IMG/VR virus record: IMGVR_UViG_2935054407_000002
Coordinates: 37,578 to 101,577 of that record
Source of the DNA: a virus
Taxonomy: Duplodnaviria > Heunggongvirae > Uroviricota > Caudoviricetes
Length of the DNA stretch: 64,000 bases
Reading direction: 5' to 3' (one strand)
Shown: one piece after another, positions 2,616 to 32,207 of the stretch
Position numbering within the stretch: the first letter of the stretch is position 1
Layout: each line of letters begins with the position of its first letter
Position numbers and translations under genes: made by a program
The notes under the pieces: model-generated
The model's database searches: none
What the model was told of the DNA's origin: nothing
The model's input: only the letters and a program-made list of their open reading frames with translations

Positions 2616-2666
2616 GCAGCGGCGCCGGGCCCCGTGCGAGGAATCCGGTAGCTGCGGGATAAGTGG

Positions 2667-3272: not shown

Positions 3273-3378
3273 GGATGGGTCTCCCGTGTCGGGTAAGCGC
3301 TCGCCGTGTCGGCGGGCGAAAGGGGACATGCGAAAGCGCCGGGCCTGCCATGTCGGCTGGTCCGGTCAGGGAAAAAGA

Positions 3379-4176: not shown

Positions 4177-5575
4177 TCCCACCAGCCGAGTCCGGAGGCT
4201 GCGGCGGCGCTTCGAGAGCGTCAGCTTCGGCCTTCTGCTTGTCGACGATCGCGTTCAACTGAGCTTCCGCATCAGCCTTCGCCGCAGTGGCCTTCCACCT
4301 GGTGACATCCGTCTGCGTCACACCGGGAATGCGCTCCCAGAGCTCTTGCGCGGGCACGTCGAGCATCTGCTTCAGCTTCCCAAGCGCATCTACTGTCGAC
4401 GCCAGAGCGCGGGCTTCAGTGTCGCGCCATACGACCTGCGCGGCCATGTCGGACCAGCCCCGCTTGTCGCCGGCCGCGCGAGATGCCAGACGCAAGGTCT
4501 GCTCATGCGACTCACCGAAGCCAGACTTCCGCTCGGTGATCTTCCGCTGCAGGCCGCTCTCCGCTGCAGCGAGCGCTTCCGCCGACAGGTTGCTCATCTG
4601 ACCGAGCAGATGGTGGGGCGGCGTCTGGGAGACGGTCGCGATATGCCGGATCGTCTCCTCGGCGCTCTTTAAGTAGCCGCCCAAGTCCGTCTGGCCGAAC
4701 TCACCGAACTTGGTGTCTGAGTCCTCGGCCATCCACAAGCGGCTCACCGACGCGTTGAACGGCTGCATCGGGTTGCCGTTCTCATCGAAAGGTGGCGCCA
4801 TGCCCGTGACCCAACGCTGCCTGAAAGCGGCGTACTGCTGGGCCATCATCAGGCCAAACGTCGTCGAATTCAGCTGATCTTGCATCTCGAACAGAGGCTC
4901 AATCTCGCCGCGGATGCAGTCGTCGCCGTCCAAGTCATCGCCGTTGACGTACCTCACGACAGGGCACACGCCAAGGTTGTGCGCTTCGGTCTTGACGAGC
5001 CGCAACTTCCCGCCCGGCTTGACCTCCGCCTCCAGCACGTACCGGTTGACGTCGTCATACAGACGAATCGACCTGATCTGCTCCTTCACGCCGTTGTGAA
5101 TCGCCTCTTCGATGGCGTACAGCGGCCACTCATCGTCGATCGGGTCCTCGTAGAACGCCGTCATGCGCCGCGGCGACTTCGGGAGAATCACCGGCACAGG
5201 CTTGCCTGGCATGACCACCGTGTAGCCCACCCCGTACTTCAGGGCGGCCCGATGTACCCCGTGCTGGCGGGCATCCATACGGTTGGCCTGCCAAAACTCC
5301 CACGCCGCCGCGTTCTCATCCCCGCCGGCGGCCCGATACCCATCGACGTACAGCGCCTGCGCAACCACCGTGACCACAAGGGGCAAGACATTCACCCGGG
5401 CACGCTTGATCAGCCACTTGTACTCCTGCCGGGCCCCCTTCGGCACGTACACGCTGGACGCTTCGCCCCGCATGTACGCCGAGATCTTCTTCAGCCTCGG
5501 CTGCTCCTGCTCGCGCATCTGCAGCAGCCGCCGCGAGGTGTCGATGACATCCGACTCGGAGAGGGCCACAAGCAC
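4163..5575 (-). CDS. Portal protein
   Basis: 470 aa directly after the terminase large subunit gene. GTG start with a GAGGGG ribosome-binding site. Confidence 0.8.
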   Translation of the reverse strand: MLVALSESDVIDTSRRLLQMREQEQPRLKKISAYMRGEASSVYVPKGARQEYKWLIKRARVNVLPLVVTVVAQALYVDGYRAAGGDENAAAWEFWQANRMDARQHGVHRAALKYGVGYTVVMPGKPVPVILPKSPRRMTAFYEDPIDDEWPLYAIEEAIHNGVKEQIRSIRLYDDVNRYVLEAEVKPGGKLRLVKTEAHNLGVCPVVRYVNGDDLDGDDCIRGEIEPLFEMQDQLNSTTFGLMMAQQYAAFRQRWVTGMAPPFDENGNPMQPFNASVSRLWMAEDSDTKFGEFGQTDLGGYLKSAEETIRHIATVSQTPPHHLLGQMSNLSAEALAAAESGLQRKITERKSGFGESHEQTLRLASRAAGDKRGWSDMAAQVVWRDTEARALASTVDALGKLKQMLDVPAQELWERIPGVTQTDVTRWKATAAKADAEAQLNAIVDKQKAEADALEAPPQPPDSAGGNVRP

Positions 5576-5590
5576 CCCCTCGATTGATCG

Positions 5591-7240
5591 TCAGAATCCG
5601 TAAACGCGGCCCGTGCGGGTCCTCTTCTTGCGGTTCTTGTACTTCGGGGAAGCGAGCACCAGGCGGCGGACCATGCGAGCGCCGATCACACACACAGCGG
5701 CGTCGATCTTCTTCGGTGAGTCCGGAGACTCCTTACCGATCGACACACCCCATCGGTTGGGCCGGCGCCGAACATTCCCAACGTGCCGAGCAACCCGGGC
5801 GTCACCGTCGTGCCGGAATGCGCGCTCGTTGATCTCGGTCTCAGTGAGCTCGCAGGCGAGCGTGAAGTCGTAGGTGCGTGACCTCATGTCCCACGCGATC
5901 GGCTGCGGATCCTTACCGTCCGGCACGGAATGCACGAGCAGCTTCTCGGCGTACCGGCCTGGCCACGTGACCTTCGCGAACCCTTCCCACTCCTTGACGT
6001 CAGCGAAGAACGCCAACACGTCCCACCGGTCGAACATCTGCTCAACCGCGGCGTCCACCTCAGCAACCGGCACGACCGATTCCGTGCTGTGCGAGGTGTC
6101 CGGCTCCCACACGCCGATCGTGAAGACGTACCCGTCCGACATGCGGCACCCAAGCAGCGCAGTGGCGTCCCGCGACTTGGAGCCGTCGAAAAACGCGACG
6201 ATCTCCTCGCCGTCGGCAACCAGCTCGCTCGGATCCGCGATCAACGACCACGCTTGAGGCGTCATCCACGCATCCTGGGCTGCGGTAGGCCAGTTCAAGT
6301 ACTTCCGCTTGGAGTCGTCGGGCTTGCTCCGCGGATCCCAGATGCGTTCCATGATCGGACGTGTCTTCTGCCAGAAGCAGTCCTCGTACACGAACTCCAA
6401 GGCCCGGCGGAGTGAGTCCTCGTCCGTCATGTCCGTGTCCGGTGGAGCAACCCGTGCGTCGTACAGAATCCGTGACTCGCCGCGGGTCTTGCCTTCCTCC
6501 TGCGCCACCCACGCATCCCATGACGCCTCAGCTACCGATCCGATGCCGGGAATCCAGGAGTTGCAGGTCTCCAGCATCCGGCTACCGGACTTCGTGAGGT
6601 TGTCCTCCAAGGTCGCGGCTAGATCCGGGCCGCCGTTGGAGGGCTTCCAGTGCTCGGTCTCGTCAGCTATGACGCAACTCGACTCCGCGCCTTCAGCCGC
6701 AGTCGACGAAGCCGTGATCACCTCAAGGGTGCCCTCAGGAGCCTTGTAGTAGCGGGTCTTCGCCGGGTCGAGAGCGAACTCTGTGACGATCCGAGAGCCT
6801 TTCGGCGCGAACGCCCGCACCATCCGCATGGTGTTCGCCGTCTGTGACTCCGCAGTAGCGGCGATCTGCACCAACGGCATGTCCACAGGCTTGCCACGAA
6901 CCCCGCCAGGAGACTTCGAATCGAAGTCCAGCACCCGGACCGGAGCGCAAAGCTCAGCCAGGGCCATCAGAGCGGCGAACGGTGACTTACCCGACCCCTT
7001 CGCTAGCCGACGAACCCCGTGGTGGTAGAGCCAGTTGCCGTCCTCATCCACCGCGTACCAGTGAAGGAGGAACCGCACCTGCGACTCAACGAACTTCCAC
7101 GGCAACCCCGCGCGCGGCCCGTTCGGATGCCGCAGGTATTTGCTTGACCACCGGAGCACTTCCCAGCCGAGGGTGAACTGCGGAATCTCCTCAGGCAGGG
7201 TGATAAGCCGGTCAGCCGGAGAGACGACGACGCCACTCAT
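5591..7240 (-). CDS. Terminase large subunit
   Basis: About 550 aa with an N-terminal ATPase-like region and a C-terminal nuclease-like region. Start probably at MSGVVVSP; overlaps TerS. Confidence 0.85.
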   Translation of the reverse strand: MSGVVVSPADRLITLPEEIPQFTLGWEVLRWSSKYLRHPNGPRAGLPWKFVESQVRFLLHWYAVDEDGNWLYHHGVRRLAKGSGKSPFAALMALAELCAPVRVLDFDSKSPGGVRGKPVDMPLVQIAATAESQTANTMRMVRAFAPKGSRIVTEFALDPAKTRYYKAPEGTLEVITASSTAAEGAESSCVIADETEHWKPSNGGPDLAATLEDNLTKSGSRMLETCNSWIPGIGSVAEASWDAWVAQEEGKTRGESRILYDARVAPPDTDMTDEDSLRRALEFVYEDCFWQKTRPIMERIWDPRSKPDDSKRKYLNWPTAAQDAWMTPQAWSLIADPSELVADGEEIVAFFDGSKSRDATALLGCRMSDGYVFTIGVWEPDTSHSTESVVPVAEVDAAVEQMFDRWDVLAFFADVKEWEGFAKVTWPGRYAEKLLVHSVPDGKDPQPIAWDMRSRTYDFTLACELTETEINERAFRHDGDARVARHVGNVRRRPNRWGVSIGKESPDSPKKIDAAVCVIGARMVRRLVLASPKYKNRKKRTRTGRVYGF

Positions 7241-7646
7241 CGAGAGCCTCCACAGCCGCCTCCTCATCGGCATCCGTCTGCACCGCGCGCTCCAACTCCA
7301 CCCGCACCCGGCGCCGATCCCCTTCAGTCGTCAGCAGGCTCGACATGCCGGACATCACGGCAGCGAACATCTGGGCAGAGAACCGGCTCGCTTCCAAATT
7401 TCGGGACATGGCCTCCGCCACATACCGGGCCGTGGCCCAGTCGGACGCCTCGTAGAAAACCCGCTGCCCTGACAGCCCCAACGATCGGAACCAGTTCTGC
7501 GCAATCGGATGCCATGCCTCATCTGGCTCCTCAACAGGAAGCGGACCACCATCAACCTGAACCTTCGTGACCGCTTCCTGCTCCGCCTTCGTCCGATGCC
7601 CATGGCGCTGCCCTGAGCGCTTCCCTACGGGGCCACGAGAACCCAT
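7212..7646 (-). CDS. Terminase small subunit (putative)
   Basis: About 145 aa ORF directly upstream of and overlapping TerL. GGAGGTG ribosome-binding site before the internal ATG (MGSRGPVGKR...). Confidence 0.55.
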   Translation of the reverse strand: MGSRGPVGKRSGQRHGHRTKAEQEAVTKVQVDGGPLPVEEPDEAWHPIAQNWFRSLGLSGQRVFYEASDWATARYVAEAMSRNLEASRFSAQMFAAVMSGMSSLLTTEGDRRRVRVELERAVQTDADEEAAVEALDEWRRRLSG

Positions 7647-7805
7647 GACACCTCCAACGAAGGTCACGCCGCCAAACGGCTCACAGAGGCTCACGGGCTC
7701 TAAAACTTGGGAGGGATCTCCGGCGCAATACGTAGCCGATCTGGGGCCGGGAGGGAGGAGGGGACCCCGCCCACCCCCTCCTGCTAGGTCCATTTCACCT
7801 GGGGT

Positions 7806-8873
7806 TCAGAGGGTCGCCAGGAGGCGCTTCATGGCTTCTCGGTCACTCTTGATGGAGTTGCACATGAAGTGCGCACACTGCGTGTTAGCGGGTTCGTGTG
7901 TGCCTCCCTTGGCGAGAGGCACAATGTGATCGATGACTGGAGCTTTGGGGTGAGGCACTACCTGGTCTCTGTCTGTCTTGGTGTGGCAGAGCTGGCAGGT
8001 CCAGTCGTCTCGTTCAAAGATCCGCGACCTGTAGACGTGAGCTACATACGCGTTCTTCTGTACTGCTCGGCGCCTTGCTCTCTGGTCTGCCTTGGCGCAC
8101 TTCGCTGAGCAGTAGGAGGCGGGGCCTGTGGCTTGAACGCAGAAGGATGTGCCGCAGCGGATGCAGTCTCCTTGGACGAAGACGCGTGGCTTGGGGATGT
8201 GCTGCCTCGCGGGGTGCCTGTCGGGAAGTCTGGTCCATGCCCTGCCGTGTGGCCAGTCCAGTGGGGCCGGCAGCCATGCGGTTCTGCGTCGCTCCTGCTC
8301 CTTGGCTTCTCTCCACTGTGCTGTGCAGGCCGTAGAGCACCAGCGAGTACGCGTAGAGCTGGACGTGAATGCGGCTTGACAGTGATCGCAGGAGAGGCTG
8401 TATGCGCGGGTCTTGTTCGCGCATGGCCTGGAGCAGTATTTAGCTAGGCGTTGACGGGTTCTCCAAGCGGATCCGCATCCCTCGCAGGTGCGTTCGTAGA
8501 TGACGTCGTGGCTTGGCCAGCGGCCTGTTTCTTCTTTCCGCTGTCGCTGGTACGCCATCCCGCGTTCGACGTTGAATCGCTTCTCGCAGGAGGGTTTGCC
8601 GCACTGGACCCGGCGGGGATGCGTCATCTGATCGCCACAGTACGGACAAGGTCTGGTCTCGATGACCTTCTCTGCCTGACGCTTGATCTTGGCGTCCTCG
8701 GCCCATTGCTGTGCGCGGCCGTCGGCCTTGGCCCTGCGTGCACTTGCCTTGGCCCGACATCTGCCTGAGCAGTACGTAGGTAAAGGGCCGATCTTCTTCG
8801 GCGTCAGCGGGGTGGCGCACTCTTTGCAGGTGAGCGCGCTGGGGGTAGGGTCTGTCACGTCGTCCTGGTCCAA
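7806..8873 (-). CDS. HNH endonuclease with five N-terminal zinc-ribbon repeats
   Basis: C-terminal HNH motif DHIVPLAKGGTHEPANTQCAHFMCN. N-terminus carries five copies of C-x2-C-x10-14-(Y/W)CS-x2-C. Confidence 0.85.
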   Translation of the reverse strand: MDQDDVTDPTPSALTCKECATPLTPKKIGPLPTYCSGRCRAKASARRAKADGRAQQWAEDAKIKRQAEKVIETRPCPYCGDQMTHPRRVQCGKPSCEKRFNVERGMAYQRQRKEETGRWPSHDVIYERTCEGCGSAWRTRQRLAKYCSRPCANKTRAYSLSCDHCQAAFTSSSTRTRWCSTACTAQWREAKEQERRRTAWLPAPLDWPHGRAWTRLPDRHPARQHIPKPRVFVQGDCIRCGTSFCVQATGPASYCSAKCAKADQRARRRAVQKNAYVAHVYRSRIFERDDWTCQLCHTKTDRDQVVPHPKAPVIDHIVPLAKGGTHEPANTQCAHFMCNSIKSDREAMKRLLATL

Positions 8874-9022
8874 TCAGGTCGGCCGTGCCCGAGGAGTGTT
8901 AGCGCACTCGCTCGGGCTTCTTATTGGGTTGTGTCTCGATCATCCCAGATGTGCCTGACATTCCGTGGGAATCAGCCCGTCAGGTGCCAAGAATCTGCAG
9001 GTCGCATGTAGGTGACCTAGGG

Positions 9023-9167
9023 TTATCTGGCGAGGATTCCGCTGTCGGCCAGTGCGAGGAAGCAGAGGCCGGCGGCGAGGAGCGCGATGGGCCAGGCGCG
9101 TTGTATGGCGGCCCAGATGGCGGATGCGAGGAAGGCCACGATGGCGAGCAGGAGGATGACGTTCATG
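9023..9167 (-). CDS. Small hydrophobic membrane peptide (47 aa)
   Basis: Good AGGAGA ribosome-binding site. Translation MNVILLLAIVAFLASAIWAAIQRAWPIALLAAGLCFLALADSGILAR. Not in the ORF track because it is under 60 aa. Confidence 0.45.
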
Positions 9168-9175
9168 GGTGTCTC

Positions 9176-9508
9176 CTAGATGAGACCTGGGTGTTTTTCC
9201 TGTGGACGCTGCCTGGGGATGCGTTTGGCTTGTGCTGCTTGTCCACCTTCGCGGGAGGACTTGGTGCGGTGGCAGTAGGGAGCGACGTTGTGATGGATGG
9301 CGGCCAGGTTCTCAAGCGAGTGGTCGTCGCCAACCACGATGTGGTCGACGCCGTCTGCTCCGGGGCCGCAGCAGACGTGGCAGATGCGCTGGTCTCGTTT
9401 GAGTACCTGGTTGCGGCGTTTGGGCCAGTCTGCGGGGAGGCGGTCTCGGCGATCAGATCCCTTCCATCCGCCGGCCATTAGCTCTTGATGCCCTTCTCGG
9501 CTGGCCAT
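9176..9508 (-). CDS. HNH endonuclease
   Basis: CHVCCG...DHIV...N...H signature. Confidence 0.8.
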   Translation of the reverse strand: MASREGHQELMAGGWKGSDRRDRLPADWPKRRNQVLKRDQRICHVCCGPGADGVDHIVVGDDHSLENLAAIHHNVAPYCHRTKSSREGGQAAQAKRIPRQRPQEKHPGLI

Positions 9509-9702
9509 TCGCCAGTGGCCTGCTTGTGGAGGCGAGCGCAGAGTCCTTTGACGACGCCTGGCCCTACGTGCTTGGAGAGCTCTTCTACGCAGCGGTCGTA
9601 GGAGCCGTCGGTTCCCCAGCGCAGGCGCAGAGCTCCTGGACCGGTAGTCCAGTACCGCATGAGCTTCTCGGTTCCGTTGTCTCCGGGCTTGGCGTCTGCC
9701 AT
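9478..9702 (-). CDS. Hypothetical phage protein
   Basis: 74 aa ORF with good codon bias. Confidence 0.45.
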   Translation of the reverse strand: MADAKPGDNGTEKLMRYWTTGPGALRLRWGTDGSYDRCVEELSKHVGPGVVKGLCARLHKQATGEWPAEKGIKS

Positions 9703-9724
9703 GAGGGCCTCCGATCTCGGCCTG

Positions 9725-9865
9725 TTAGGAACCCTGTTGTGGGGTCTTCTTGCGCTTCTTCGGCGAGGTCAGGAAGTTGCGTATGGCTCGGTTGGCCATA
9801 GCTGCCTGGCCTGCTTTGTCTGTGGGGATCAGGTCGGTGGAGCCCCAGGAGAATCGGTCAGCCAT
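9725..9865 (-). CDS. Small basic ORF (46 aa)
   Basis: ATG overlaps the ART gene stop (TGATG). Lys-rich C-terminus. Confidence 0.25.
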   Translation of the reverse strand: MADRFSWGSTDLIPTDKAGQAAMANRAIRNFLTSPKKRKKTPQQGS

Positions 9866-10671
9866 CAGAGCATCAGCTCCATGTGGACGTGCGGGACGCC
9901 TTTTCTGGTGGTCACGGAGACGACGCGGAACTTACTCCCTGGGGGGAGGACCATTTCGCGGTTGGATCCTGCAGCGGCTTTGGTTCCCTTGGGGAGGGTG
10001 ATTTCGGCGGTGGCTTGCCTGGTGGCTCGGCCTACGGATCCAACGTCGTTGGTGAGGCTGGTGGAGACGAAGCCCTTGTCGGAGAGTTCCTGACCTGGCT
10101 TGAGCTCGCCGAACTGGTCAGCGGAGAAGCCCCGGTAGACGGTCATGGGTTCCGTCAGCGGTGGGGCTTTCTTGATCGCCGAGTTGAGGTCTTTGCTGGC
10201 TTTGCGTGCCCGGTCGAGGTCGGCGTCGTTGAAGCTGACGTCGGCCTTGATGTCCTTGGAATTCAGTCCTCTGAGCTGGCCGTTCATCAGAGCGAACCCT
10301 GGTGACTGGTAGAACCGCATGGCCTTGTCCTGGGCAGGGCTGAGGCTGTTGCGCCAGGATCCGTAGTGGTCGTCGAGGAACTTCTTGTCCCGGGGGGCAG
10401 CCTTGGTGGTTCCTGCTGAGGGAGGGGTTTTCGCGGCGGGCTTCGCGGCGGGGGCCTTGGCGGCGCTCGGTTTGGGTGAGGCGACCGCTTGGGCGGTGCG
10501 CTTCACCGGCGGGGAGGCGGCGCCACGTCCGCTGTTCGCCTTCTTGGTGGAGGGCGTCTCAGCGGTCTTGGTTGTGGCTGGCTTGCGGCCGTGGTTCTTC
10601 TCAACGGTCGCCGCTGGTGTGAGAGGAACCCACCCATGCTTCCACTGCTGACCCGGGTAAGGGTGAGGCAT
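9865..10671 (-). CDS. ADP-ribosyltransferase (R-S-E clade toxin-like domain). N-terminal leader motif and Ala/Lys/Pro-rich linker.
   Basis: Aromatic-R (TVYRG), STS (GFVSTSL) and ARTT-loop-like GSNREMVLPPGSKFRVV motifs. N-terminus PGQQWKHGWVPLTPAA is shared with the upstream gene. Confidence 0.7.
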   Translation of the reverse strand: MPHPYPGQQWKHGWVPLTPAATVEKNHGRKPATTKTAETPSTKKANSGRGAASPPVKRTAQAVASPKPSAAKAPAAKPAAKTPPSAGTTKAAPRDKKFLDDHYGSWRNSLSPAQDKAMRFYQSPGFALMNGQLRGLNSKDIKADVSFNDADLDRARKASKDLNSAIKKAPPLTEPMTVYRGFSADQFGELKPGQELSDKGFVSTSLTNDVGSVGRATRQATAEITLPKGTKAAAGSNREMVLPPGSKFRVVSVTTRKGVPHVHMELML

Positions 10672-10813
10672 AGCGTCCCTCGCTTTCATGCACGAGTGGG
10701 CGCCATGCGAGGCGTCCGGCTGATTCGGGTTAAGGGAGGAGGTTCACTTTCGGCCAGCGGCTGCGCAGATCGCGTCGTCAGCCTTGCGGGAGTCGACTCC
10801 GCCCTTCGCGCCC

Positions 10814-12055
10814 TTAGCGGTTGAGCCGGATCTGGTGGTTCGGCTTAGGGCCGACCATGATGGCGGCAGCACGGTCTTCCGGCTTCAGGTCGCGCTCAAT
10901 CGCGGCGGGCTCGGTGTCCACCTGGCCAGCCAGCATGAGATCCAGAATGACTCGGTCCTGTTGGTCGCGAGGTAGATCGCCGAGCTGCCGGCGGACGGCA
11001 GCCATCGTGGTCCACTTGCCCGGCCTGGGGCTGGCGGCAGCCACCGCGTCCAAGACGATCTTTTTTGCCTGGGTGTCGGGGACGTTGCCCCCGGCGCTGT
11101 TGGCGCGCTGTCTCTGCTCCTCGCGCTTCGGAGCCGCCGCGGGTTTCGGCTGAACCTGCGGCTTACGGGCGGCCTCTTGGCCTGACAGGCGGATCTGGTG
11201 GGTCGGCGTGTTGCCGACCATGAGTTCGGCCTTGCGGTCCTCGGGCTTCAGATCCCCGTAGATCGCGACGGGCTCGATATCCAGTCGACCAGCGAGCATA
11301 AGGTCCAACATGGCCCGGTCCTGCTGATCACGAGGTAGATCAGCGAGCTGACGGCGGACGGCGGTTATGGTGGTCCACTTACCCGACCTAGAGTTAGCGG
11401 CCACCGCGTCCAGGACGAGCTTTTCCGCTTGAGCGTCGGAGACTTTTCCTCCGCTCGGGGCGGGCTTGGGAGGTGCGGTCTTCGCAGGAGCGGAAGCCCT
11501 GGGTGCCGCCTTGGCCGGAGGCTTGGCGTCGGCTGCGCTTTTCTGGTTGACGTCGCCCGCGTTAACGGTGACGACCTTCCCGCCGAGGTCGACCTTGACT
11601 TCGCCGTCGCCGCCCTTGCCGACGACCCGGCCGGTTTTGCCGTCGTGGTCGCCTGCCGTCACCTCGACGACGTCTCCGGTGCGGAGCATCTTGTAGTTGC
11701 CCGACAAGCCATGGACTCCGGCGGGGAAGCTGGAATCGTCGTCGGTCGCCTTACGTCCGCCTGCCTTGCTGGGCCGGCCTGCCATGGTGCGGAGCGCGTC
11801 GTCGACCTTTGATGACTTCGATGGCGCCTTCCCGGCGTTGAGGCCGGTCCACTTCGGAGGCGGCGTCCCGTCCGGGCCAGCACCCTCCTGGGCGTTCTTG
11901 CGGAGTGTCTTCGCTGCCTCAGCGGCTTCTGCTACGACGCGAGAGAGCATCGAGTTCTTGCCGGGCTTCTTGCCGTGGTTCTTCTTCACCGCAGCAGCGG
12001 GGGTGATGGGGATCCAGCCGTGACGCCATTGCTGACCAGGCTTGGTGTCTGCCAC
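10814..12055 (-). CDS. Multidomain protein with a shared N-terminal leader, a KOW/SH3-like segment, AKP-rich linkers and a tandem-duplicated ~90-aa winged-helix-like domain
   Basis: GTG start after AGGAGG. N-terminus MADTKPGQQWRHGWIPITPAAAVKKNHGKKP. Two repeats: ...KWTTITAVRRQLADLPRDQQDRAMLDLMLAGRLD... and ...KWTTMAAVRRQLGDLPRDQQDRVILDLMLAGQVD... Confidence 0.6.
   Translation of the reverse strand: MADTKPGQQWRHGWIPITPAAAVKKNHGKKPGKNSMLSRVVAEAAEAAKTLRKNAQEGAGPDGTPPPKWTGLNAGKAPSKSSKVDDALRTMAGRPSKAGGRKATDDDSSFPAGVHGLSGNYKMLRTGDVVEVTAGDHDGKTGRVVGKGGDGEVKVDLGGKVVTVNAGDVNQKSAADAKPPAKAAPRASAPAKTAPPKPAPSGGKVSDAQAEKLVLDAVAANSRSGKWTTITAVRRQLADLPRDQQDRAMLDLMLAGRLDIEPVAIYGDLKPEDRKAELMVGNTPTHQIRLSGQEAARKPQVQPKPAAAPKREEQRQRANSAGGNVPDTQAKKIVLDAVAAASPRPGKWTTMAAVRRQLGDLPRDQQDRVILDLMLAGQVDTEPAAIERDLKPEDRAAAIMVGPKPNHQIRLNR
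10817..11086 (-). repeat. Intragenic tandem repeat, copy 2 (about 270 bp, about 75% nucleotide identity to copy 1)
   Basis: Direct nucleotide/protein repeat inside CDS 10814-12055. Confidence 0.7.
11176..11446 (-). repeat. Intragenic tandem repeat, copy 1
   Basis: Direct nucleotide/protein repeat inside CDS 10814-12055. Confidence 0.7.
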
Positions 12056-12100
12056 GGCGACCTCCTAATGAGTGTGAGTGGTGGGCGCCGCTACAGGTAG

Positions 12101-12316
12101 CTATTCAGGGGCGGCTACAGCGATCGCGGAGACGCCAGACAGGAAGGTGAAGTCCACGCCAGGGAAGGACTTGCGGAGACTCGTCACCACGGCGTGAGTG
12201 TCCTCGGGGGTCGGGTCGTCGGAGAGGGTTACGAGGACCTTGTCGCCAGGGCGGAGAACGATCATGGCGGGGGTGGTCACGGTGCCGCCTTGTCCCCATA
12301 GGGCGACCAGGCGCAT
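12101..12316 (-). CDS. Hypothetical protein
   Basis: 71 aa ORF with coding-like codon usage. Confidence 0.4.
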   Translation of the reverse strand: MRLVALWGQGGTVTTPAMIVLRPGDKVLVTLSDDPTPEDTHAVVTSLRKSFPGVDFTFLSGVSAIAVAAPE

Positions 12317-12468
12317 TCCTCACAAACTGCGTAGCCGCCAATGGTGTGGATACCTTCAGCGGTAATGGCGGTGATGGTCGCGGTCTGGAGCGTGCTCTTC
12401 AGGCAGTGGGGACACCACTCATGGCGAAGATCACTAATGATGGGGATTGCCTGTTCGGACTCCGTCAT
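12277..12468 (-). CDS. Small zinc-ribbon protein
   Basis: CPHC...CEEC pair of CxxC motifs. Confidence 0.45.
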   Translation of the reverse strand: MTESEQAIPIISDLRHEWCPHCLKSTLQTATITAITAEGIHTIGGYAVCEECAWSPYGDKAAP

Positions 12469-12623
12469 CCTGTGGCGCCCTTGATGCTGGCCTGGAGCAT
12501 CTGGCCAAGCAGGAACAGCGCCTGCGGCTCGGTGAATCCCGCGTTCAGGTAAGCGAGGAACAGCTCGTGGAGCTGGGCGGCGCCTTCAGCGAGGAGAGTG
12601 ATCGGATCCTCGGGATCAGGCAT
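12465..12623 (-). CDS. Small hypothetical protein (52 aa)
   Basis: ATGA overlaps with both neighbours. MPDPEDPITLLAEGAAQLHELFLAYLNAGFTEPQALFLLGQMLQASIKGATG. Confidence 0.4.
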   Translation of the reverse strand: MPDPEDPITLLAEGAAQLHELFLAYLNAGFTEPQALFLLGQMLQASIKGATG

Positions 12624-13077
12624 CGGTGGGCGCTCCGTCCTCGCTGATCAGACCGCTCCGAACCCACCCTGTCTGCTCGTTGTACAGATCCGAAGGAGGC
12701 GGCCAGGTACGGTAGATACTCCAGTTGGTGCCACCGTCTTCGGTGAACTCAACCTCTATCCGCTGACTGTCTGCTCGCATCTCCACACTGCTGTCCGCGT
12801 ACTCATCTTCGACGCGGAGGAGACCGCCGACGACGCTGATAGTGCGCTTGGTGAGGCGAGCGGCCCGCTGAGCGTTGGCCAGGGTGACCGCTTCTCTAAT
12901 GCCGGAGCCGCCGGATGGCTCGAAGACCACCAGTTGGGGTTGCGCCACTATGACGTCTTCGGTCAGCGACGGTGCAGCCTGCTCAACGAGTTGCCGCACC
13001 TCTTGATGGGTGAACCCTGCGGCGCGGAGTTCTTCCCGGTAGGTGGCGAGACGCTGGGCGGTTGTCAGTTCGGTCAC
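12616..13077 (-). CDS. Hypothetical protein
   Basis: 153 aa ORF with good codon bias. Confidence 0.5.
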   Translation of the reverse strand: MTELTTAQRLATYREELRAAGFTHQEVRQLVEQAAPSLTEDVIVAQPQLVVFEPSGGSGIREAVTLANAQRAARLTKRTISVVGGLLRVEDEYADSSVEMRADSQRIEVEFTEDGGTNWSIYRTWPPPSDLYNEQTGWVRSGLISEDGAPTDA

Positions 13078-13265: not shown

Positions 13266-13922
13266 GTGTGCGTCATGGCCAACAACACCGCCACAGGATG
13301 TGGAACGCTCCTCGTTGTCGCTCTCCTCGTAGGCGGCTGCATGAGCCTGTTCAACGGCGACGACGAACCCGTAGCGGCGCAACCCGCACAGCCCGTGGCA
13401 GTTCCCGACTGGGCGAACAAACCGCTCGTTGAGGCAGAGAACGAAGCGAAGGCTCTCGGGCTGGACCTGTCGTCTTCCGGACTGACCGGTAGCTTCTGCA
13501 GCGACGAAACCGACTGCTTCATCTACAAGACGGTTCCGAAAGCCGGGACCGCGGTTACGGCGGGCGCGAAGGTCGCGGTGAAGTGGTGGGACAAGGAAGA
13601 ACGCACGTTCCACCGGAAGTACCGGAAGATGCCAAACGTCGTTGGCTGGTCCGAGGAGAAGGCCAACAAGCTGCTGGAACCGATCTACTGGTCCGTCGAA
13701 GAACGCCGCAAGGAGACGACAAGAATCCCGGTGGGCGCTCACCGTGTCCTGGCGCAGTCCCCCAGAGCGGGCCGGCCGTTGAGGGTGGGACAGAAGGTGA
13801 AGCTGGTGATCGGCTTCAACTTCGGCTCAACCTCAGGTGATGGCGGTGGGGGTGGGAGCTTCAGCAGCGGTGATGGCAACGATGGCGAGGGCCGGTTCTG
13901 TGGTCGCCGCTGGTGGTGCTGA
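13266..13922 (+). CDS. Lipoprotein with two PASTA-like domains and a Gly-rich C-terminus (opposite-strand moron)
   Basis: Signal peptide with a lipobox-like LVGGC. PASTA-like segments (KPLVEAENEAKALGLDL...; MPNVVGWSEEKANKLLEP...). Only sizeable + strand gene in the late region. Confidence 0.6.
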   Translation: MCVMANNTATGCGTLLVVALLVGGCMSLFNGDDEPVAAQPAQPVAVPDWANKPLVEAENEAKALGLDLSSSGLTGSFCSDETDCFIYKTVPKAGTAVTAGAKVAVKWWDKEERTFHRKYRKMPNVVGWSEEKANKLLEPIYWSVEERRKETTRIPVGAHRVLAQSPRAGRPLRVGQKVKLVIGFNFGSTSGDGGGGGSFSSGDGNDGEGRFCGRRWWC

Positions 13923-13927
13923 CGGGA

Positions 13928-14629
13928 TTACGGGTGGGCGCTGGAGGCGAGCACGCTTGGGTTGTGCTCCGCGACGAGAGGGCGGACCGCTTCGGGGTCG
14001 CCTTCGGCTTCAACGTAGCGGCCCATGAGCGCCATGTTCGCCTGGTAGAGCAGGCTGGATGGGTCGATTTCGCTGGGGTGCCAGAGGTGGAAGATCGTGC
14101 CCTCATGCTTGGCAGTCGGGCCGAGAAGCGCATCACAGGCAACCCTCGCGGCCGTGTCCTCGGCGCCCCAACCTTGGAACCGCTCGTCCATTCCGCCAGC
14201 CTGCCACCATGCGGAAGGTTGGATTACCAGAATGCCGCCGGTGGACCAGTCGGTTTCGAGCTCGGTCGCGCACAGGTAGGCGGGAGTCCCTGCGAGGTAG
14301 GCGTCCGTTCCCTGTGGGGAGAGTCCGCGGAAGTGCGTGTAGGGCAGGTGAAGGAGTCCGTCGTGGGCGCTCTCGACCGCCGCGAGGAGCGGTTCCCGCT
14401 CGGGCAGCGTGTCTGCGTCGCACAGGACGACCACGTCAGCGCCAACGTCCTGGGCGAGGCGAACACCGTGGTTGCGTGACCCCGCGCGGGAAAACGGTGT
14501 GTGGCCTGAGTCTGCGTCGATGTGCCACGCATCCGGCAGCAGGGTTCGCAGGTGGGCGCGCACCGTTTCGTGGTGGCGCTCCCGATCCGGCTGGCCGCCA
14601 CGCCAGGGGATTACGACTGCGACGCGCAC
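13928..14629 (-). CDS. GT-A fold glycosyltransferase (GT2-like)
   Basis: VVIPWRG...CDAD (DxD) motif. Confidence 0.65.
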   Translation of the reverse strand: MRVAVVIPWRGGQPDRERHHETVRAHLRTLLPDAWHIDADSGHTPFSRAGSRNHGVRLAQDVGADVVVLCDADTLPEREPLLAAVESAHDGLLHLPYTHFRGLSPQGTDAYLAGTPAYLCATELETDWSTGGILVIQPSAWWQAGGMDERFQGWGAEDTAARVACDALLGPTAKHEGTIFHLWHPSEIDPSSLLYQANMALMGRYVEAEGDPEAVRPLVAEHNPSVLASSAHP

Positions 14630-14639
14630 ATGACCTCCC

Positions 14640-15224
14640 TCAGGTCTTGCGGAACACAGCCCATGGGCGCTCCGGCTCGATGCGCTTCAGGCCGCGCTTC
14701 TCCGCTTCGGCCTTCTGCGCGTCGGGGTGCCAGGTGGTGACGTCGATCCAGATCTGAGCCTCTTCGGGGTTGTCCGAGGTGGGCCAGTCCACGACGATGA
14801 GTCCGCCCTTGCGGACGGCCTTGACGAGCCCGTCGAGGATGGCCAAGGCCGAAGATCGCGGGTGGTGGATCAGCACCGCCAGGCACACCACGGCGTCTAC
14901 CTTGTGGCCGATCTGCTCGTACAGGTCACTGCCGTCGGAGAGGACCTGCGGCATGTCGGGGTCGTTCTCGGCGAGGTGGGCGAGCATCTTCGGCGAGGCA
15001 TCCGCGCCGGTCACGTCGAACCCGAGACGCTTCAGCGGGATCGCTACCCGGCCATCGCCACAGCCGAAGTCCACAACGCGTGAACCTGGCTTGAGGACCT
15101 CGGCGAGCTGCAGGGCGGCCTGTTCACCAGATGCCCAGTACGCCTCTTCGGAGACGCCGCGCGACGGGTGAATATGAGCGGGGCCTGCCTGGTCCCAGGC
15201 GTCGATGACCTCTTGGCCTGTCAT
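14640..15224 (-). CDS. Class I SAM-dependent methyltransferase
   Basis: Motif I VVDFGCGDGRVAIPL. ATGA overlap with the upstream dehydrogenase gene. Confidence 0.75.
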   Translation of the reverse strand: MTGQEVIDAWDQAGPAHIHPSRGVSEEAYWASGEQAALQLAEVLKPGSRVVDFGCGDGRVAIPLKRLGFDVTGADASPKMLAHLAENDPDMPQVLSDGSDLYEQIGHKVDAVVCLAVLIHHPRSSALAILDGLVKAVRKGGLIVVDWPTSDNPEEAQIWIDVTTWHPDAQKAEAEKRGLKRIEPERPWAVFRKT

Positions 15225-16471
15225 GACTTCCGTCCGATCCGAATCACCGTCACGCCCGTCTGGTCAGGCATGTAGCCATGCGGGTCCAGCACCACCGAAC
15301 CAGCAGGGAACGCGTAGTCCACGAACTGCGGGTGCTTGGTGCCGATCACGTACACGTGGGGCTTGTCGAGTGGGCGATGACGCTTCGGCTCCACGAACGG
15401 GTCGTAGAGCCCCACCTGGCGTTGCCGGTCACGCAGCTGGTGGGCGAGGAGACGCGCTGGCGAGCCCGCGGTGAGCGCGCTGCTGGGCTTGTATGCCTCA
15501 CCGAGAATGTAGATGTCGAGGCCGGTCTGATCTGCCCACCGCTCTGCGAGGTCAGCCAGCCACCCTGACTGTGCTTCTCGGGCGTAGGCCATCTGGCCGA
15601 GCAGGTCGTAGGACAGTTCCAGGCGTTGAGCGAGCCATGACATGGCGATCAGGTCGCGGGGGTGGCAGGCGCCGCCGTCTCCCATGCCGCCCCGCAGGTA
15701 CTTCGGGGAGATCACCCGCTCGGTCGCGAGGGACAGGGCGTCGATGACCTGGTCGCAGTCAGCGCCGGTCTTCTCGCAGATCTCCATGAGGGTGTTGCCG
15801 ATGACGACCTTCGCGGAGATGACTGTGTTGTACGCGACCTTGATCAGTTCAGCGGACTCGATGGACGTCTTGAACACCGGCCGGTCATGAAGTTGCCCGT
15901 ACACCTCGACCACAGGGGTCAGGTGTTCGGGCCGGTCGGCGCCCATGAGGACGAACTCCGGCTCCAAGAAGTCCGCGATCGTCGTCCCCATCGCGATGAA
16001 CAGCGGGCTGTACACGAGGGTGACGTGGGCGTTCAGCAAGCCCCGCAGGTGCTTGTTGCACGTACCCGGCAGCGCCGTGGACACCACAACGAGCGTGATC
16101 GCCTTGGCCTGCTGGGCAGCGGCCCGGCACACATCCCGAACCGCCTGGGTGAGGAACCCGTACTCGAAGTCTCGGCGATCGTAGGGGGCAGGCGCCTCGC
16201 CGCCGTAGGCAGGAGCGTGCGGCGTCTGCACCGCGACAAACACCACATCGGCGTGGGCAACGACCTCGGCCACCGTGTGAGCGAGCTTCAACGGGCCAGA
16301 GTCGATCAGGTCCGCGAATCCCTGCTCGCCCTGGTCCCCACCTTCGGAGAACATGCGCTCGACTCGGGCTCGGTCGATGTCGTAGCCGATGACGTCGTGG
16401 CCAGCGAGGTGGTGCAGCGCCATGGCGCAGGGGGCGCCCAACTTGCCGAGGCCAATCCAGCCGACGTTCAT
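15221..16471 (-). CDS. Nucleotide-sugar dehydrogenase (UDP-glucose/GDP-mannose 6-dehydrogenase family)
   Basis: N-terminal NAD-binding MNVGWIGLGKLG. Family-typical central and C-terminal domains. Confidence 0.8.
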   Translation of the reverse strand: MNVGWIGLGKLGAPCAMALHHLAGHDVIGYDIDRARVERMFSEGGDQGEQGFADLIDSGPLKLAHTVAEVVAHADVVFVAVQTPHAPAYGGEAPAPYDRRDFEYGFLTQAVRDVCRAAAQQAKAITLVVVSTALPGTCNKHLRGLLNAHVTLVYSPLFIAMGTTIADFLEPEFVLMGADRPEHLTPVVEVYGQLHDRPVFKTSIESAELIKVAYNTVISAKVVIGNTLMEICEKTGADCDQVIDALSLATERVISPKYLRGGMGDGGACHPRDLIAMSWLAQRLELSYDLLGQMAYAREAQSGWLADLAERWADQTGLDIYILGEAYKPSSALTAGSPARLLAHQLRDRQRQVGLYDPFVEPKRHRPLDKPHVYVIGTKHPQFVDYAFPAGSVVLDPHGYMPDQTGVTVIRIGRKS

Positions 16472-17124
16472 GGGGTCCTTCCGGGGGTCCAAGCTGCCCG
16501 GAGCGCCTCAACATCGCGAGCTCTGGCGGCCTTCATGGGGGGTGAGTGGTAGTCCGCGGTCCGGTACCCGGCCTGGGCATCACGCCAGGTCTCGTCGTCG
16601 TGTCCGCCGGTCAGGTCGTGACGGTCGTGGAGGACGTTCACCACGATGCGGTGGTGGGCGCCTACCGCGGCCGCGACATCCTGGGCCCAAGAGTCACAGT
16701 GCGGGGACAGGCTGAAGTGACCGAGGACGTCCACCATGCTGCGGTGGACGATCGGGAAGATGTTCAGGGCTGGCGAGTCGTTGTGTGCCGGCCACAGCAC
16801 GCCGCAAGGCGCCTCAGCGACCCGGGAGTCCCAGCCGGGAGTGAGCATCCTCGCGTCGTCGTTCCACAGCAGCAGCCACTCCCCCGACGCCATGGCGGCG
16901 AGGTGGTTCACGTACTCGTGGAGCTGATGGTAGCCGTACCTGGTGGGCGCCACCCAGCAGGTGGCCCGGGACCGCTCAGCCGCTTCAACGGTGTCAGGGT
17001 CGTCGGGGTCCGCAGCAACCAGGATCTCCAGACGGTCCGGGTTGTCGGCCATGACGCGTAGGGAGCCGATCGAGTCCGCCAGCGAGGATGGGCGTCCACG
17101 GGAGGGCAGCAACACAGAGATCAT
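16468..17124 (-). CDS. GT-A fold glycosyltransferase (GT2)
   Basis: ISVLLPSRGRP N-terminal GT2 signature. 4-nt overlaps with neighbours. Confidence 0.7.
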   Translation of the reverse strand: MISVLLPSRGRPSSLADSIGSLRVMADNPDRLEILVAADPDDPDTVEAAERSRATCWVAPTRYGYHQLHEYVNHLAAMASGEWLLLWNDDARMLTPGWDSRVAEAPCGVLWPAHNDSPALNIFPIVHRSMVDVLGHFSLSPHCDSWAQDVAAAVGAHHRIVVNVLHDRHDLTGGHDDETWRDAQAGYRTADYHSPPMKAARARDVEALRAAWTPGRTP

Positions 17125-17420
17125 GTGATGCGGATCAATCCGCTGCGGAGAAGCGGCTCCTCAGGAGGAGCGACCGGTTTCACCCAGACGACGTAGCGGC
17201 CCTCGTCGAGCTCGCTGACGCCTTCGTCGCCGCCGTAGAAGACCATCGCCCGGCCGGTTCCGGTCTCCCACTGGGCGGCGTACCAATCATCGTCTCCGGG
17301 CTCGACGTCGTACGGCATGATCGCCATGAAGACTGGCGTCAAAGCGGTGTAGTCGCCTCCAACTACCCCTGAGCGGATGAACTCTTTCGTTCCGGACGGG
17401 TAGCAAGGGATGTCGCTCAC
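17121..17420 (-). CDS. Hypothetical protein
   Basis: 99 aa ORF. ATGA overlap with the GT2 gene. Confidence 0.45.
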   Translation of the reverse strand: MSDIPCYPSGTKEFIRSGVVGGDYTALTPVFMAIMPYDVEPGDDDWYAAQWETGTGRAMVFYGGDEGVSELDEGRYVVWVKPVAPPEEPLLRSGLIRIT

Positions 17421-17434
17421 GAGCTACCCGCCCT

Positions 17435-20653: not shown

Positions 20654-20654
20654 T

Positions 20655-20710
20655 CCCGGCCCCCTTCAGCTCAAGGGCCGGGCAACAAAAAACCGCCCGA
20701 AGGCGGCAAG
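20655..20710 (-). terminator. Rho-independent terminator (two tandem hairpins) downstream of the 148-aa gene
   Basis: On the - strand, GCCGCC-TTCG-GGCGG is followed by TTTTTTGTT. It is preceded by a CCGGCCC...GGGCCGG hairpin. Confidence 0.65.
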
Positions 20711-20732
20711 GGCTACAGCGCGTTTATGCAGG

Positions 20733-21179: not shown

Positions 21180-21182
21180 GGA

Positions 21183-21751: not shown

Positions 21752-21813
21752 GGGAGACCTCCTCGGGCACGCAGAAAAGGCCGCCCAGTGGACGGCCTTT
21801 CAGGGGGATCGGG

Positions 21814-22038: not shown

Positions 22039-22076
22039 GAGCAGAGGCTACGGGCGGGCACCGACAAAAGCCGAGG

Positions 22077-32128: not shown

Positions 32129-32207
32129 GTGATCTCTTCCAGGGGTGGGGGAGATGGGTTCAGTTTGCCTGTGCCGGCCCGTAGGAGGCGGGCCGACAAC
32201 GGCAGAG

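Follow-up and report, generated by a model that had tools for sequence, protein, structure and literature searches.

A peptide of about 30 residues, present at the N-terminus of two neighboring proteins encoded by a prophage of a Streptosporangium strain, is a widespread and unannotated tag on diverse enzyme cargos whose genes lie beside those for phage head assembly. Judged from the genes and their arrangement, this leader most likely loads its cargo into the virus particle for delivery to the next host. The two proteins, an ADP-ribosyltransferase (ART) and a protein with KOW and winged-helix domains (protein B), are encoded in a window that comprises the whole stretch of DNA analyzed (64,000 nucleotides).

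The shared leader and its two proteins

The late genes for B, ART and a 74-residue protein (p74) are consecutive on the minus strand, just upstream of an HNH-terminase-portal-capsid operon. The original prediction had placed the HNH and terminase genes directly downstream of the first two, which is right as to position but not as to adjacency, since the 74-aa gene at 9478-9702 intervenes. The features are as follows.

10814-12055, minus: B gene, 413 aa; leader, helix, DAAIR-like motif, KOW and two winged-helix domains
11963-12055, minus: B leader, aa 1-31, MADTKPGQQWRHGWIPITPAAAVKKNHGKKP
11774-11806, minus: second short motif of B, VDDALRTMAGR, aa 84-94
11543-11695, minus: B KOW-type β-barrel, aa 121-171
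11180-11452, minus: B winged-helix domain 1, aa 202-292
10817-11092, minus: B winged-helix domain 2, aa 322-413
9865-10671, minus: ART gene, 268 aa; leader, Ala/Pro/Thr/Lys-rich linker and C3/VIP2-type domain
10579-10671, minus: ART leader, aa 1-31, MPHPYPGQQWKHGWVPLTPAATVEKNHGRKP
10579-10656 (ART) and 11963-12040 (B), minus: leader core, aa 6-31 in both proteins
10387-10578, minus: ART linker, disordered, aa 32-95 (64 residues, with 18 Ala, 10 Pro, 9 Thr and 9 Lys)
9868-10386, minus: ART catalytic domain, aa 96-268
10129-10137, minus: Y-R-G, aa 179-181
10057-10065, minus: S-T-S, aa 203-205
9955-9963, minus: N-R-E, aa 237-239
9478-9702, minus: p74, 74 aa, PHROG 6439 (phrog_6439, E = 5e-26)
9176-9508, minus: first of two HNH endonucleases that precede the terminase, 110 aa (phrog_333, E = 8e-28)
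7806-8873, minus: second HNH endonuclease, 355 aa, with N-terminal Cys-rich repeats (Pfam HNH; phrog_1271, E = 1e-32)
1641-7793, minus: head and packaging module, whole
7212-7793, minus: TerS
5591-7273, minus: TerL
4163-5575, minus: SPP1-type portal
3379-4182, minus: VG15-family protein, in the usual MuF position
2667-3329, minus: scaffold
1641-2615, minus: HK97-fold capsid protein

Both proteins start with the consensus PGQQW(K/R)HGW(V/I)P(L/I)TPAAxV(E/K)KNHG(R/K)KP, and the shared motif that had been noticed on the two genes is genuine. The leader cores are identical at 20 of 26 residues and at 55 of 78 nucleotides (70%), and the pair is the top 26-aa match among all stop-free stretches of the window, the runner-up reaching 17/26. 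Different codons are used at 11 of the 20 identical residues. Because of these synonymous differences, the leader is considered to be conserved as protein, and a recent DNA duplication as well as an RNA or translation element are excluded. The ART starts at the ATG at 10671, preceded 5 nt upstream by GAGGGA, and its homologues begin at the same MP(H/Q)PYPGQ; a longer open reading frame reaching 10689 is unnecessary. B starts at the GTG at 12055, with AGGAGG 5 nt before it. The ribosome-binding sites thus lie upstream of the leader, which, along with the codon analysis, speaks against its being a mere translation feature. The leader is rich in aromatic residues, His and Gly, and is modeled with low confidence (pLDDT 38-65). 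By inspection, it is not a secretion signal of the Sec, Tat or T7SS (WXG or LXG) type, as it is not hydrophobic and lacks a twin arginine; nor is it a helical WXG100 or LXG domain, and its genes sit in a phage head module.

Neither Pfam nor NCBIfam holds a model that covers the leader or p74, and a term search of the literature found no prior description of the leader. The NCBI call of the ART (P0001) is 213 aa long and drops the leader. When the source genome was annotated automatically, the ART was begun 61 residues too late and the leader removed, which shows how readily tags of this kind go missing.

The assignment of gene 9865-10671 to the R-S-E-type ARTs was borne out by profile search and by structure prediction on a homologue. 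The protein matches Pfam ADPrib_exo_Tox (E = 4e-16; 59.3 bits against a cut-off of 23.4) and the “ADP-ribosyltransferase exoenzyme toxin” family phrog_3895 (E = 4e-11), and its sequence matches in the PDB include Lmo0066 (8za7) and CdtA. The NAD+-binding motifs VYRGF (R180) and FVSTSL (S203-S205) are kept in all close homologues. The ARTT loop carries N237-R-E239, aligned to E-Y-E of CdtA, in place of the canonical (Q/E)-x-E; this departure is real and family-wide, the position reading [S/A/T/V/N]-R-E with only the catalytic Glu kept. The non-canonical triad probably bears on target specificity, which it leaves open, and not on fold. The fold was modeled on the homologue P0028, which is 63% identical over the ART domain and is a natural fusion of an HPR-type leader, ART and p74. 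Its AlphaFold model, with the leader at a pLDDT of ~52, matches 8za7_B (E 1.7e-13 by fold comparison) as well as Vis, CDTa, Iota, C3bot and Vip2 (E 1e-12 to 1e-10). In the genes scanned with Pfam and PHROG, no immunity domain was detected, ADP-ribosylhydrolase included, and by the same profiles neither ART nor B contains a MuF (PF04233) or portal domain.

In B, the KOW region forms a five-stranded SH3-like barrel with the Gly-Lys KOW motif (NusG/Spt5/L24 type), followed by two winged-helix domains of H1-H2-H3 plus β-wing topology that share 65 of 91 residues, and the earlier call of this architecture was correct. Homologues have one copy of the winged helix only. No sequence family in Pfam or PHROG was assigned to the winged helices, and a full-length search with B gave 8 matches and was swamped by low-complexity words. 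Many winged helices bind protein (RPA32C, cullin WHB, ScpA). VDDALRTMAGR is a variant of x-D-A-A-I-R-x-A-A-G-R, a motif present in most of the non-ART leader proteins. The Ala/Lys/Pro-rich linker predicted after both leaders exists in the ART, where its length and sequence vary among homologues, whereas in B a helix (aa 35-55) comes first and the Ala/Pro/Lys-rich linkers later. The likeness of these regions to linker histones and HupB tails is limited to composition, and the top structural matches of B are not linker histones.

Distribution of the leader, its cargos and p74

A search for the PGQQW.HGW leader and for what follows it had been proposed in the original prediction. Among 1.84 billion representatives, the leader profile found 107 clusters (50% identity) with E≤1e-3, of which 44 reach E≤1e-10; the best E is ~1e-19, and the cargo domains behind the leader are unrelated; a word-indexed protein search with the same profile returned only 4 matches, all short proteins. 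The leader nearly always stands at the extreme N-terminus, mostly within the first few residues, and the remaining copies are internal in giant proteins. At least 10 unrelated cargo types were counted. Pfam domains of 66 leader members comprise ADPrib_exo_Tox (6), PI3_PI4_kinase (4), TPR (4), KOW (4), anthrax-lethal-factor-like (2) and glutamine deamidase (1), and most members have no Pfam domain; HExxH peptidases and papain-like, GNAT-like and ParB-like cargos were added from IMG/VR loci. Polymorphic toxins and polyvalent proteins typically draw on such a set of effector domains (PMC3482391, PMC5512222).

The hosts of the leader phages span several actinobacterial genera. No cultured phage that carries the leader was found in INPHARED, and neither megablast of positions 9000-13000 nor tblastn with B, the leader and two leader-bearing proteins as queries gave a match in 50,697 GenBank phage records; Gordonia VIP2-like toxins are the sole GenBank phage matches, weak and confined to the ART domain.

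Each locus has one to four leader genes, which either immediately precede (p74)-HNH-terminase-portal or come right behind the portal. The window has the arrangement [1-3 leader genes]-p74-HNH-TerS-TerL-portal-VG15-scaffold-MCP in common with L002, L015, L016, L020, L041, L050, L051 and L058, while portal-VG15-leader-p74 is seen in L013/L021 and TerL-portal-...-three leader genes in L012/L022/L054. At least two portal families are involved, SPP1-type in the window and Phage_portal (PF04860) in P0170, and the window portal has no detectable similarity to the portal parts of P0170 and P0061. For this reason, a single portal-specific docking site is unlikely, and the idea was rejected.

Fusions tie the leader and its cargos to head proteins. 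P0170 joins a portal domain, an internal leader and a SAP domain; P0148 and P0151 join a p74 domain, the leader (twice) and an ART; P0183 joins the leader to a zeta toxin, in a region that matches a “minor head protein” PHROG; and the cargo of a 436-aa leader protein of L022 matches the C-terminal part of the “head morphogenesis” PHROG 7625. The ART family is also fused to Phage_Mu_F (P0058, P0059) or portal (P0061). Free-standing ARTs of this family occur behind three other N-terminal motifs, WNPxxHPRGxxGRF/KW, VGPHGYIHGWIKVG and HLPGKHDQxxH, the last of which falls exactly on the MuF|ART and portal|ART junctions. Different leader types can share a locus (L002, L021) and, in L025, a single protein.

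Of 41 non-duplicate leader loci, at least 18 contain p74, its gene usually following the leader genes. Its domain is N-terminal in P0148 and P0151, ahead of the leader motifs, is C-terminal in the ARTs P0023/27/28/38, and lies within the “capsid maturation protease and MuF-like fusion protein” of Microbacterium phages. Its fusion in cis to both ARTs and head proteins makes p74 an unlikely immunity protein. A dedicated partnership with the leader was ruled out, since p74 is widespread in cultured actinophages, including many phages without leader genes; in the three cultured-phage p74 loci examined, the sole resemblance to a leader is one short motif in a 60-aa Sukkupi gene. Kinship with p74 was considered for the “NWV...GGLPxYI” domain, which is C-terminal in P0025/P0040 and N-terminal in an L014 protein, and was rejected, as PHROG 6439 does not match it.

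Candidate roles of the leader

The leader is probably, if with considerable doubt, a portable docking peptide by which effector cargo is loaded into the capsid, in what would be a split, non-covalent version of the MuF/portal polymorphic toxins and of the polyvalent proteins. A common targeting signal, e.g. for capsid packaging and ejection, had been suggested from the outset, and comparative genomics makes it the best-supported reading: the leader is portable across unrelated cargos, its genes sit in or beside the head and packaging module, and fusions join leader and cargos to proteins of the portal, MuF, p74 and “head morphogenesis” kinds. ART and B would then be two cargos of one effector-loading system, each built of a ~30-residue N-terminal short linear motif, M-x4-PGQQW(K/R)HGW(I/V)P(L/I)TPxAAxxKNHG(R/K)KP, a long disordered Ala/Pro/Lys-rich tether, at times with a motif of DAAIRxAAGR form, and a folded cargo domain. 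During head assembly the leader would dock on a conserved internal procapsid component, candidates being the portal, the VG15/MuF-position protein, p74 and the HK97-fold shell on its inner face. The cargo on its tether would be enclosed, later leave the capsid with the DNA and act in the newly infected cell. There, early in infection, the ART may modify a host macromolecule by ADP-ribosylation in the manner of T4 Alt, and B, a putative nucleic-acid-binding or transcription-factor-like protein, may accompany or protect the incoming genome or redirect host transcription. The prediction of ARTs that are packaged in the head and injected, and of MuF/portal-fused effectors, is well established, and ART genes often lie beside terminase and portal genes (PMC9503650, PMC5576092, PMC7302621). 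Against loading, the leader is kept in portal-fused proteins, where a docking signal would seem redundant. Phages also keep morons and unpackaged late accessory genes upstream of the terminase, which counts against it as well.

The redundancy of a loading signal in giants fused to portal or p74 fits a role after synthesis or delivery in the host cytoplasm, an unlikely alternative in which the leader would address its protein to one host structure or factor or, instead of loading it, thread it through the tail channel at ejection. Host targets considered for such an address were RNA polymerase, the ribosome, the nucleoid, the divisome and an activating host cofactor. A short, conserved peptide of this composition, modeled with low confidence, is a typical ligand motif; it is found with different portal families, and the KOW and winged-helix domains of B would suit transcription or translation machinery. 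However, leader and cargos are repeatedly fused to head proteins and encoded within head modules, the four leader types on the same ART fit phage-specific receptors better than one host target, and the hosts cover several genera.

It is rather improbable that the leader and DAAIR motifs are processing or handling sites, either for cleavage of polyproteins into modules by a head protease or for docking of a small chaperone or neutralizer such as p74, which would hold toxic cargo inactive in the cell that makes it. They do occur, repeated, at module junctions of giant proteins (P0148, P0151), HLPGKHDQxxH marks the carrier|ART junctions exactly, p74 is usually the next gene, and the VG15-family gene is annotated in PHROGs as a maturation protease. 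Nevertheless, cutting a free-standing protein at residues 6-31 would free nothing useful, the fusion of p74 in cis to ARTs and MuF/protease proteins would be unusual for an immunity or antitoxin protein, and p74 is present in many phages without leader genes.

An enzyme-substrate pair, in which the ART would modify B or DNA, had also been proposed. This reading, widened to an enzyme-regulator pair and to the shared leader or B-bound DNA as target, is very unlikely. The genes are adjacent and share a leader in the window, ART plus B-like pairs recur (L016/L058, L056, L064), and the ARTT triad leaves specificity open; yet the breadth of cargos, the leader loci without any ART (L001, L002, L012/L022, L013, L015, L018, L024, L025), ARTs of the same family without B or behind other leaders, and the lack of a link between the domains of B and ADP-ribose recognition leave the idea without support. 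Finally, although both leader copies stand at gene starts, chance, recent local duplication or a nucleic-acid feature such as translation initiation is refuted to near certainty by the codon differences, the 107 clusters worldwide, the internal copies in giant proteins and the unlike ribosome-binding sites of ART and B.

If the leader is a virion-loading signal, the injected effectors of uncultivated actinophages could be listed purely from sequence by scanning for a ~30-residue tag, and most cargos behind it are without a known domain. It would also show how phages without MuF- or portal-fused toxins deliver enzymes, and would account for the modular arrays of genes ahead of the terminase. 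As a tag, it could serve to bring foreign proteins into actinophage capsids, a use already made of the T4 capsid-targeting sequence. More tentatively, and with somewhat less than an even chance, actinobacterial siphophages may use a modular short-peptide code of at least four interchangeable leaders and the DAAIR motif as a general virion-loading signal, much as secretion signals serve secretion systems, by which any tagged protein would be docked on a conserved procapsid receptor, packed and injected with DNA. The four leaders of the proposed code are WxHGWIPLT, HPRxxxG(K/R)(F/W), GPHGYIHGWI and HLPGKHDQxxH, and the tagged repertoire comprises ART, peptidases, deamidase, kinase-like, KOW plus winged-helix and many unknown domains. 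Under such a code, this repertoire would be a readable catalogue of first-minute host-takeover and anti-defence effectors.

Comparison with known systems

The window ART resembles the R-S-E ARTs of the C3/VIP2/CDTa type in its ADPrib_exo_Tox domain, Y-R-G, S-T-S and catalytic Glu, and differs from them in its ARTT triad and in having no binary-toxin partner or secretion signal. Listeria Lmo0066, of an ART-ARH effector-immunity pair (PDB 8za7), is among the best sequence and fold matches of the family; unlike that pair, the window ART has no neighboring ADP-ribosylhydrolase immunity gene in evidence.

A short peptide, a tether and a folded cargo also make up the layout of the T4 capsid-targeting-sequence proteins and of encapsulin cargo. 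The T4 sequence targets the scaffolding core of a myovirus and is cut off by the gp21 protease at L/I-x-E, and encapsulin cargo peptides bind the inner face of an HK97-fold shell. In T4, capsid-targeting sequences are carried by the internal proteins IPI-III, and Alt is a packaged ART (T4 reviews PMC9958956, PMC9026906). The leader is likewise a short N-terminal peptide on unrelated proteins, one of them an ART; the window has two such proteins and other loci have as many as four. Its proposed role would similarly be incorporation into the prohead and ejection with DNA; by contrast, it has no sequence similarity to the T4 signal, and the window phage has an SPP1-like head module. Encapsulin cargo shares the short conserved peptide, disordered tether and folded enzyme, whereas its motif is unrelated in sequence; an encapsulin reading of the locus was rejected, as TerS, TerL, an SPP1-type portal and a scaffold denote a virus and not a nanocompartment.

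Polyvalent proteins of phages and conjugative elements (Iyer et al. 2017, PMC5512222) have a comparable vocabulary of ART, ParB-like, zeta, 2H-like and SAP domains and a predicted co-injection with DNA, and P0148, P0170 and P0183 similarly chain portal or p74, leaders and several effector domains. The modules of the window are instead separate genes, each with its own leader copy, and the text of that paper open to a term search mentions neither “short motif” nor “linker”.

The MuF/portal polymorphic toxins (Zhang et al. 2012, PMC3482391; Jamet et al. 2017, PMC5576092), which include the MuF-VIP2 fusions of Microbacterium phages (PMC7302621) and the Enterococcus EFV toxin, have a carrier of ~300 residues where the window proteins have ~30. 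In further contrast, leader genes stand several in tandem, non-toxin cargos (KOW plus winged helix, TPR) are common, and no immunity gene is evident, the next gene being that of p74. Nonetheless, the same ART family serves as C-terminal cargo in P0058, P0059 and P0061, the repertoire of ART, zeta toxin, papain-like and lethal-factor-like peptidase domains is held in common, and both systems exchange C-terminal domains, keep their genes by terminase, portal and capsid, and are predicted to deliver their cargo by way of the capsid.

A shared leader on unrelated proteins

The ADP-ribosyltransferase (ART; 9865-10671) and its neighbour B (10814-12055), a protein with a KOW domain and two winged-helix domains, begin with a common N-terminal peptide, as originally noted. 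Residues 6-31 of the two proteins, the leader, are identical at 20 of 26 positions, and no other pair of stop-free stretches in the window matches as well over 26 residues. The corresponding nucleotides agree at 55 of 78 positions, with different codons used at 11 of the 20 identical residues, and selection therefore acts on the peptide. Both starts are preceded by a ribosome-binding site at a distance of 5 nt, namely AGGAGG ahead of the GTG of B at 12055 and GAGGGA ahead of the ATG of ART at 10671, and homologues of ART share the start at MP(H/Q)PYPGQ. For this ORF (9865-10689, minus), the source genome is publicly annotated with an ART of 213 aa (P0001) that starts 61 residues downstream of the conserved start, and thus the leader is absent from the annotated protein. 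Comparable annotation cuts may conceal such tags in other genomes.

The search for ART homologues had already returned proteins that match only over approximately the first 30 residues and continue into unrelated sequence. In a HMMER search of 1.84 billion representative proteins, a profile built from 26 leaders retrieved 107 clusters at E<=1e-3, 44 of them at E<=1e-10. The leader core, W-(K/R)-H-G-W-I-P-L-T-x-x-A-A-x-x-K-x-H-G, sets in within the first 5-10 residues of most retrieved proteins. The domains behind it, or cargos, are unrelated to one another: a Pfam scan of 66 leader proteins assigned ADPrib_exo_Tox (6), PI3_PI4_kinase (4), TPR (4), KOW (4), anthrax-lethal-factor-like peptidase (2) and glutamine deamidase (1) domains, and the majority contained no known domain.

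An exact DNA-pattern scan of IMG/VR identified 17 loci, all with true leaders at an ORF start and with up to four leaders per locus; these add HExxH peptidases, papain-like, GNAT-like and ParB-like domains, and more ARTs to the list of cargos. In metagenomes, the same pattern matched 46 loci, of which approximately 32 are true leaders and the remainder expected chance matches. Many non-ART leader proteins also contain a second short motif, approximately (S/T)S(R/K)xAD(A/D)AIRxAAGR, which reads VDDALRTMAGR in B, and xDAAIRxAAGR recurs in linkers. No model of the leader exists in Pfam, NCBIfam or PHROGs, and no cultured phage with the leader was found by tblastn. The 60-aa gp24 of Gordonia phage Sukkupi (L027, 9070-9252), encoded directly upstream of the HNH-terminase genes, consists of a leader-like motif (KWGHGFVPKNAAARKLKKK), basic residues and little else, and may represent a cargo-less leader in a cultured phage.

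Genomic setting beside the head genes

All genes relevant here lie on the minus strand of the window, and are given below in order of transcription.

Genes of the leader and head region
13928-17124, minus: glycosyltransferase, methyltransferase and UDP-glucose-dehydrogenase genes, first in transcription order
between these and B, minus: a few small ORFs
10814-12055, minus: B, directly before ART
9865-10671, minus: ART, between B and p74
9478-9702, minus: p74 (a 74-aa protein), between ART and the HNH genes
9176-9508 and 7806-8873, minus: two HNH endonucleases, in tandem upstream of TerS
7212-7793, minus: TerS
5591-7273, minus: TerL
4163-5575, minus: portal, SPP1-type
3379-4182, minus: VG15-family protein, in the usual MuF position
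2667-3329, minus: scaffold protein
1641-2615, minus: HK97-fold capsid protein

Genes for DnaB, an antirepressor and a Thg1-like protein lie further upstream in the window, and the region therefore belongs to a phage or prophage. The Thg1-like gene (31316-32485, minus) encodes a homologue of tRNA-His guanylyltransferase (Pfam Thg1, E=4e-24, plus Thg1C). A megablast of 9000-13000 found no DNA-level relatives among 50,697 GenBank phage records. A protein of Streptosporangium sp. NPDC050855 matches the window ART with 100% identity.

The window head proteins were compared with all fetched loci by tblastn. An order of one to three leader genes, p74, HNH, TerS, TerL, portal, VG15, scaffold and major capsid protein is common to the window and eight loci (L002, L015, L016, L020, L041, L050, L051 and L058). 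In L013 and L021, leaders of a second type (HPR-type), W(N/D)PxxHPRGxxG(R/K)(F/W), also found at the N-terminus of other ART homologues, are interspersed in the order TerL, HPR-type, portal, VG15, HPR-type, WxHGW-type, p74, HPR-type. L012, L022 and L054 have one leader gene ahead of TerL and another three after the portal. The HPR-type ART P0027 is encoded among large unannotated genes, several kb downstream of the gene for the large terminase.

Several neighbouring genes merit description in their own right. The VG15-family protein (Pfam PF25310; PHROG 193, labelled 'head maturation protease') contains a CxxC...HDHDGC motif similar, on visual inspection, to the metal site at the C-terminus of MuF proteins, and is a candidate receptor for the leaders. 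In the larger HNH protein (7806-8873), the HNH domain is preceded by an extended N-terminal region in which CxxC pairs are numerous, in the manner of Zn-ribbon-like repeats. The glycosylation set (13928-17124 and 562-1572, minus) comprises two to three glycosyltransferases, a UDP-glucose/GDP-mannose dehydrogenase and a SAM methyltransferase, with a GT4 glycosyltransferase directly after the capsid gene; it is also kept in L001, L002 and L016, and such a conserved phage set may serve virion glycosylation. A gene on the plus strand (13266-13922), flanked by the glycosylation genes on one side and the small ORFs that precede B on the other, resembles a moron; its product has two PASTA domains followed by a Gly-rich tail. 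An ORF of 1072 aa (17435-20653, minus) has no Pfam match, and opposite-strand stop-free stretches around nt 16400-23000 have 15-17 of 26 residues in common among themselves, which suggests that this region may contain internal repeats.

The ART family, its alternative leaders and its carriers

The prediction of an ART domain held: the protein matches Pfam ADPrib_exo_Tox (E=4e-16), contains Y-R-G (aa 179-181), S-T-S (aa 203-205) and N-R-E (aa 237-239), and a modelled homologue of 63% identity matches Lmo0066 (8za7_B), Vis, CDTa, Iota, C3 and Vip2 (E 1e-13 to 1e-10). The non-canonical N-R-E noted at the ARTT position aligns with E-Y-E of CdtA, and across the family its first residue is S, A, T, V or N, always followed by R-E. 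ART is a new representative of the VIP2/C3-like phage ARTs with an ARTT triad that is unusual yet family-wide; B is a new combination of known folds.

Among near relatives of the ART domain, at 50-80% identity, P0002-P0011 carry the same leader as the window ART. Within the alternative-leader set (P0012-P0068; loci L002, L021 and L025), others carry the HPR-type motif, VGPHGYIHGWIKVG or HLPG(K/R)H(D/N)QxxH at the N-terminus, and these three motifs are likewise found at the start of further genes in head modules. In L002, two WxHGW-type genes and one of HPR-type stand in tandem, three HPR-type genes accompany one WxHGW-type in L021, and a single L025 protein contains WxHGW followed 25 residues later by HLPGKHDQ. 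Further family members are fused to Phage_Mu_F (P0058, P0059), portal (P0061) or zeta toxin (P0054), and HLPGKHDQ lies exactly at the junction of the MuF-ART and portal-ART fusions.

Leaders also occur within larger fusions. The metagenomic P0170 (1419 aa) illustrates a polyvalent portal fusion, in which a Phage_portal domain is extended by approximately 1000 residues that include an HxT-type segment, an internal WRHGWIP leader, then a SAP domain, and other unassigned regions. P0183 combines an internal leader with a zeta toxin at its C-terminus, for which the PHROG match is a 'minor head protein'. In L022, the cargo of a 436-aa leader protein aligns with the C-terminal portion of PHROG 7625 'head morphogenesis'. 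The p74 domain (PHROG 6439; YWTxGxGxxxxRWGTxGxxxRCVxxLxKHV...GLCAxLHxxAxGxWP) is joined to a leader, DUF3626, a second leader and ART in P0148, to two leaders in P0151, and forms the C-terminus of four HPR-type ARTs (phrog_6439 E=4e-16). [quoted passage not shown] In three cultured-phage p74 loci examined, the only resemblance to the leader was one short motif in the 60-aa Sukkupi gene. In a model of the natural HPR-type leader-ART-p74 fusion P0028, built to look at docking of the leader on p74, the leader was of low confidence.

Proposed function of the leader and relation to packaged effectors

The most economical mechanism is that of a docking peptide, and putative leader-mediated enclosure and ejection of cargo is considered slightly more likely than not. 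The leader would bind a conserved internal component of the procapsid, the tethered cargo would thereby be enclosed, and it would later be ejected. Portal families differ among the leader-bearing phages, a point of caution for this reading. That the leader instead serves addressing or ejection, in the host or in the tail channel, is possible but rather unlikely, and a role of the motifs as processing or chaperone-handling sites is more doubtful still. The proposal that ART and B form an enzyme-substrate pair has become highly improbable, given that the leader is found on many cargos and also in loci without ARTs. Origin by chance, or as a mere translation or RNA-level feature, is refuted by the codon comparison of ART and B, and its probability is negligible.

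According to published work, phages pack effector enzymes, ARTs foremost, in the head for injection with the DNA. These are either free proteins, of which T4 Alt is one, or are covalently joined to MuF, portal or protease, as in MuF polymorphic toxins and polyvalent proteins; ART genes commonly adjoin those for terminase and portal (PMC5512222; PMC5576092; PMC9503650; PMC3482391; PMC7302621). At the level of sequence, the family of the window ART is demonstrably used as such carrier-fused cargo, in its MuF and portal fusions. Term searches of the literature returned no prior description of the leader, and the leader system is a packaged-effector variant without an earlier description found, which is absence of evidence and not proof of novelty. 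In contrast to the MuF and portal toxins, a leader of approximately 30 residues here stands in for the covalent carrier, and what sets the system apart from the known theme of packaged effectors is that this leader is common to many unrelated cargos, encoded by tandem genes adjoining the head genes.
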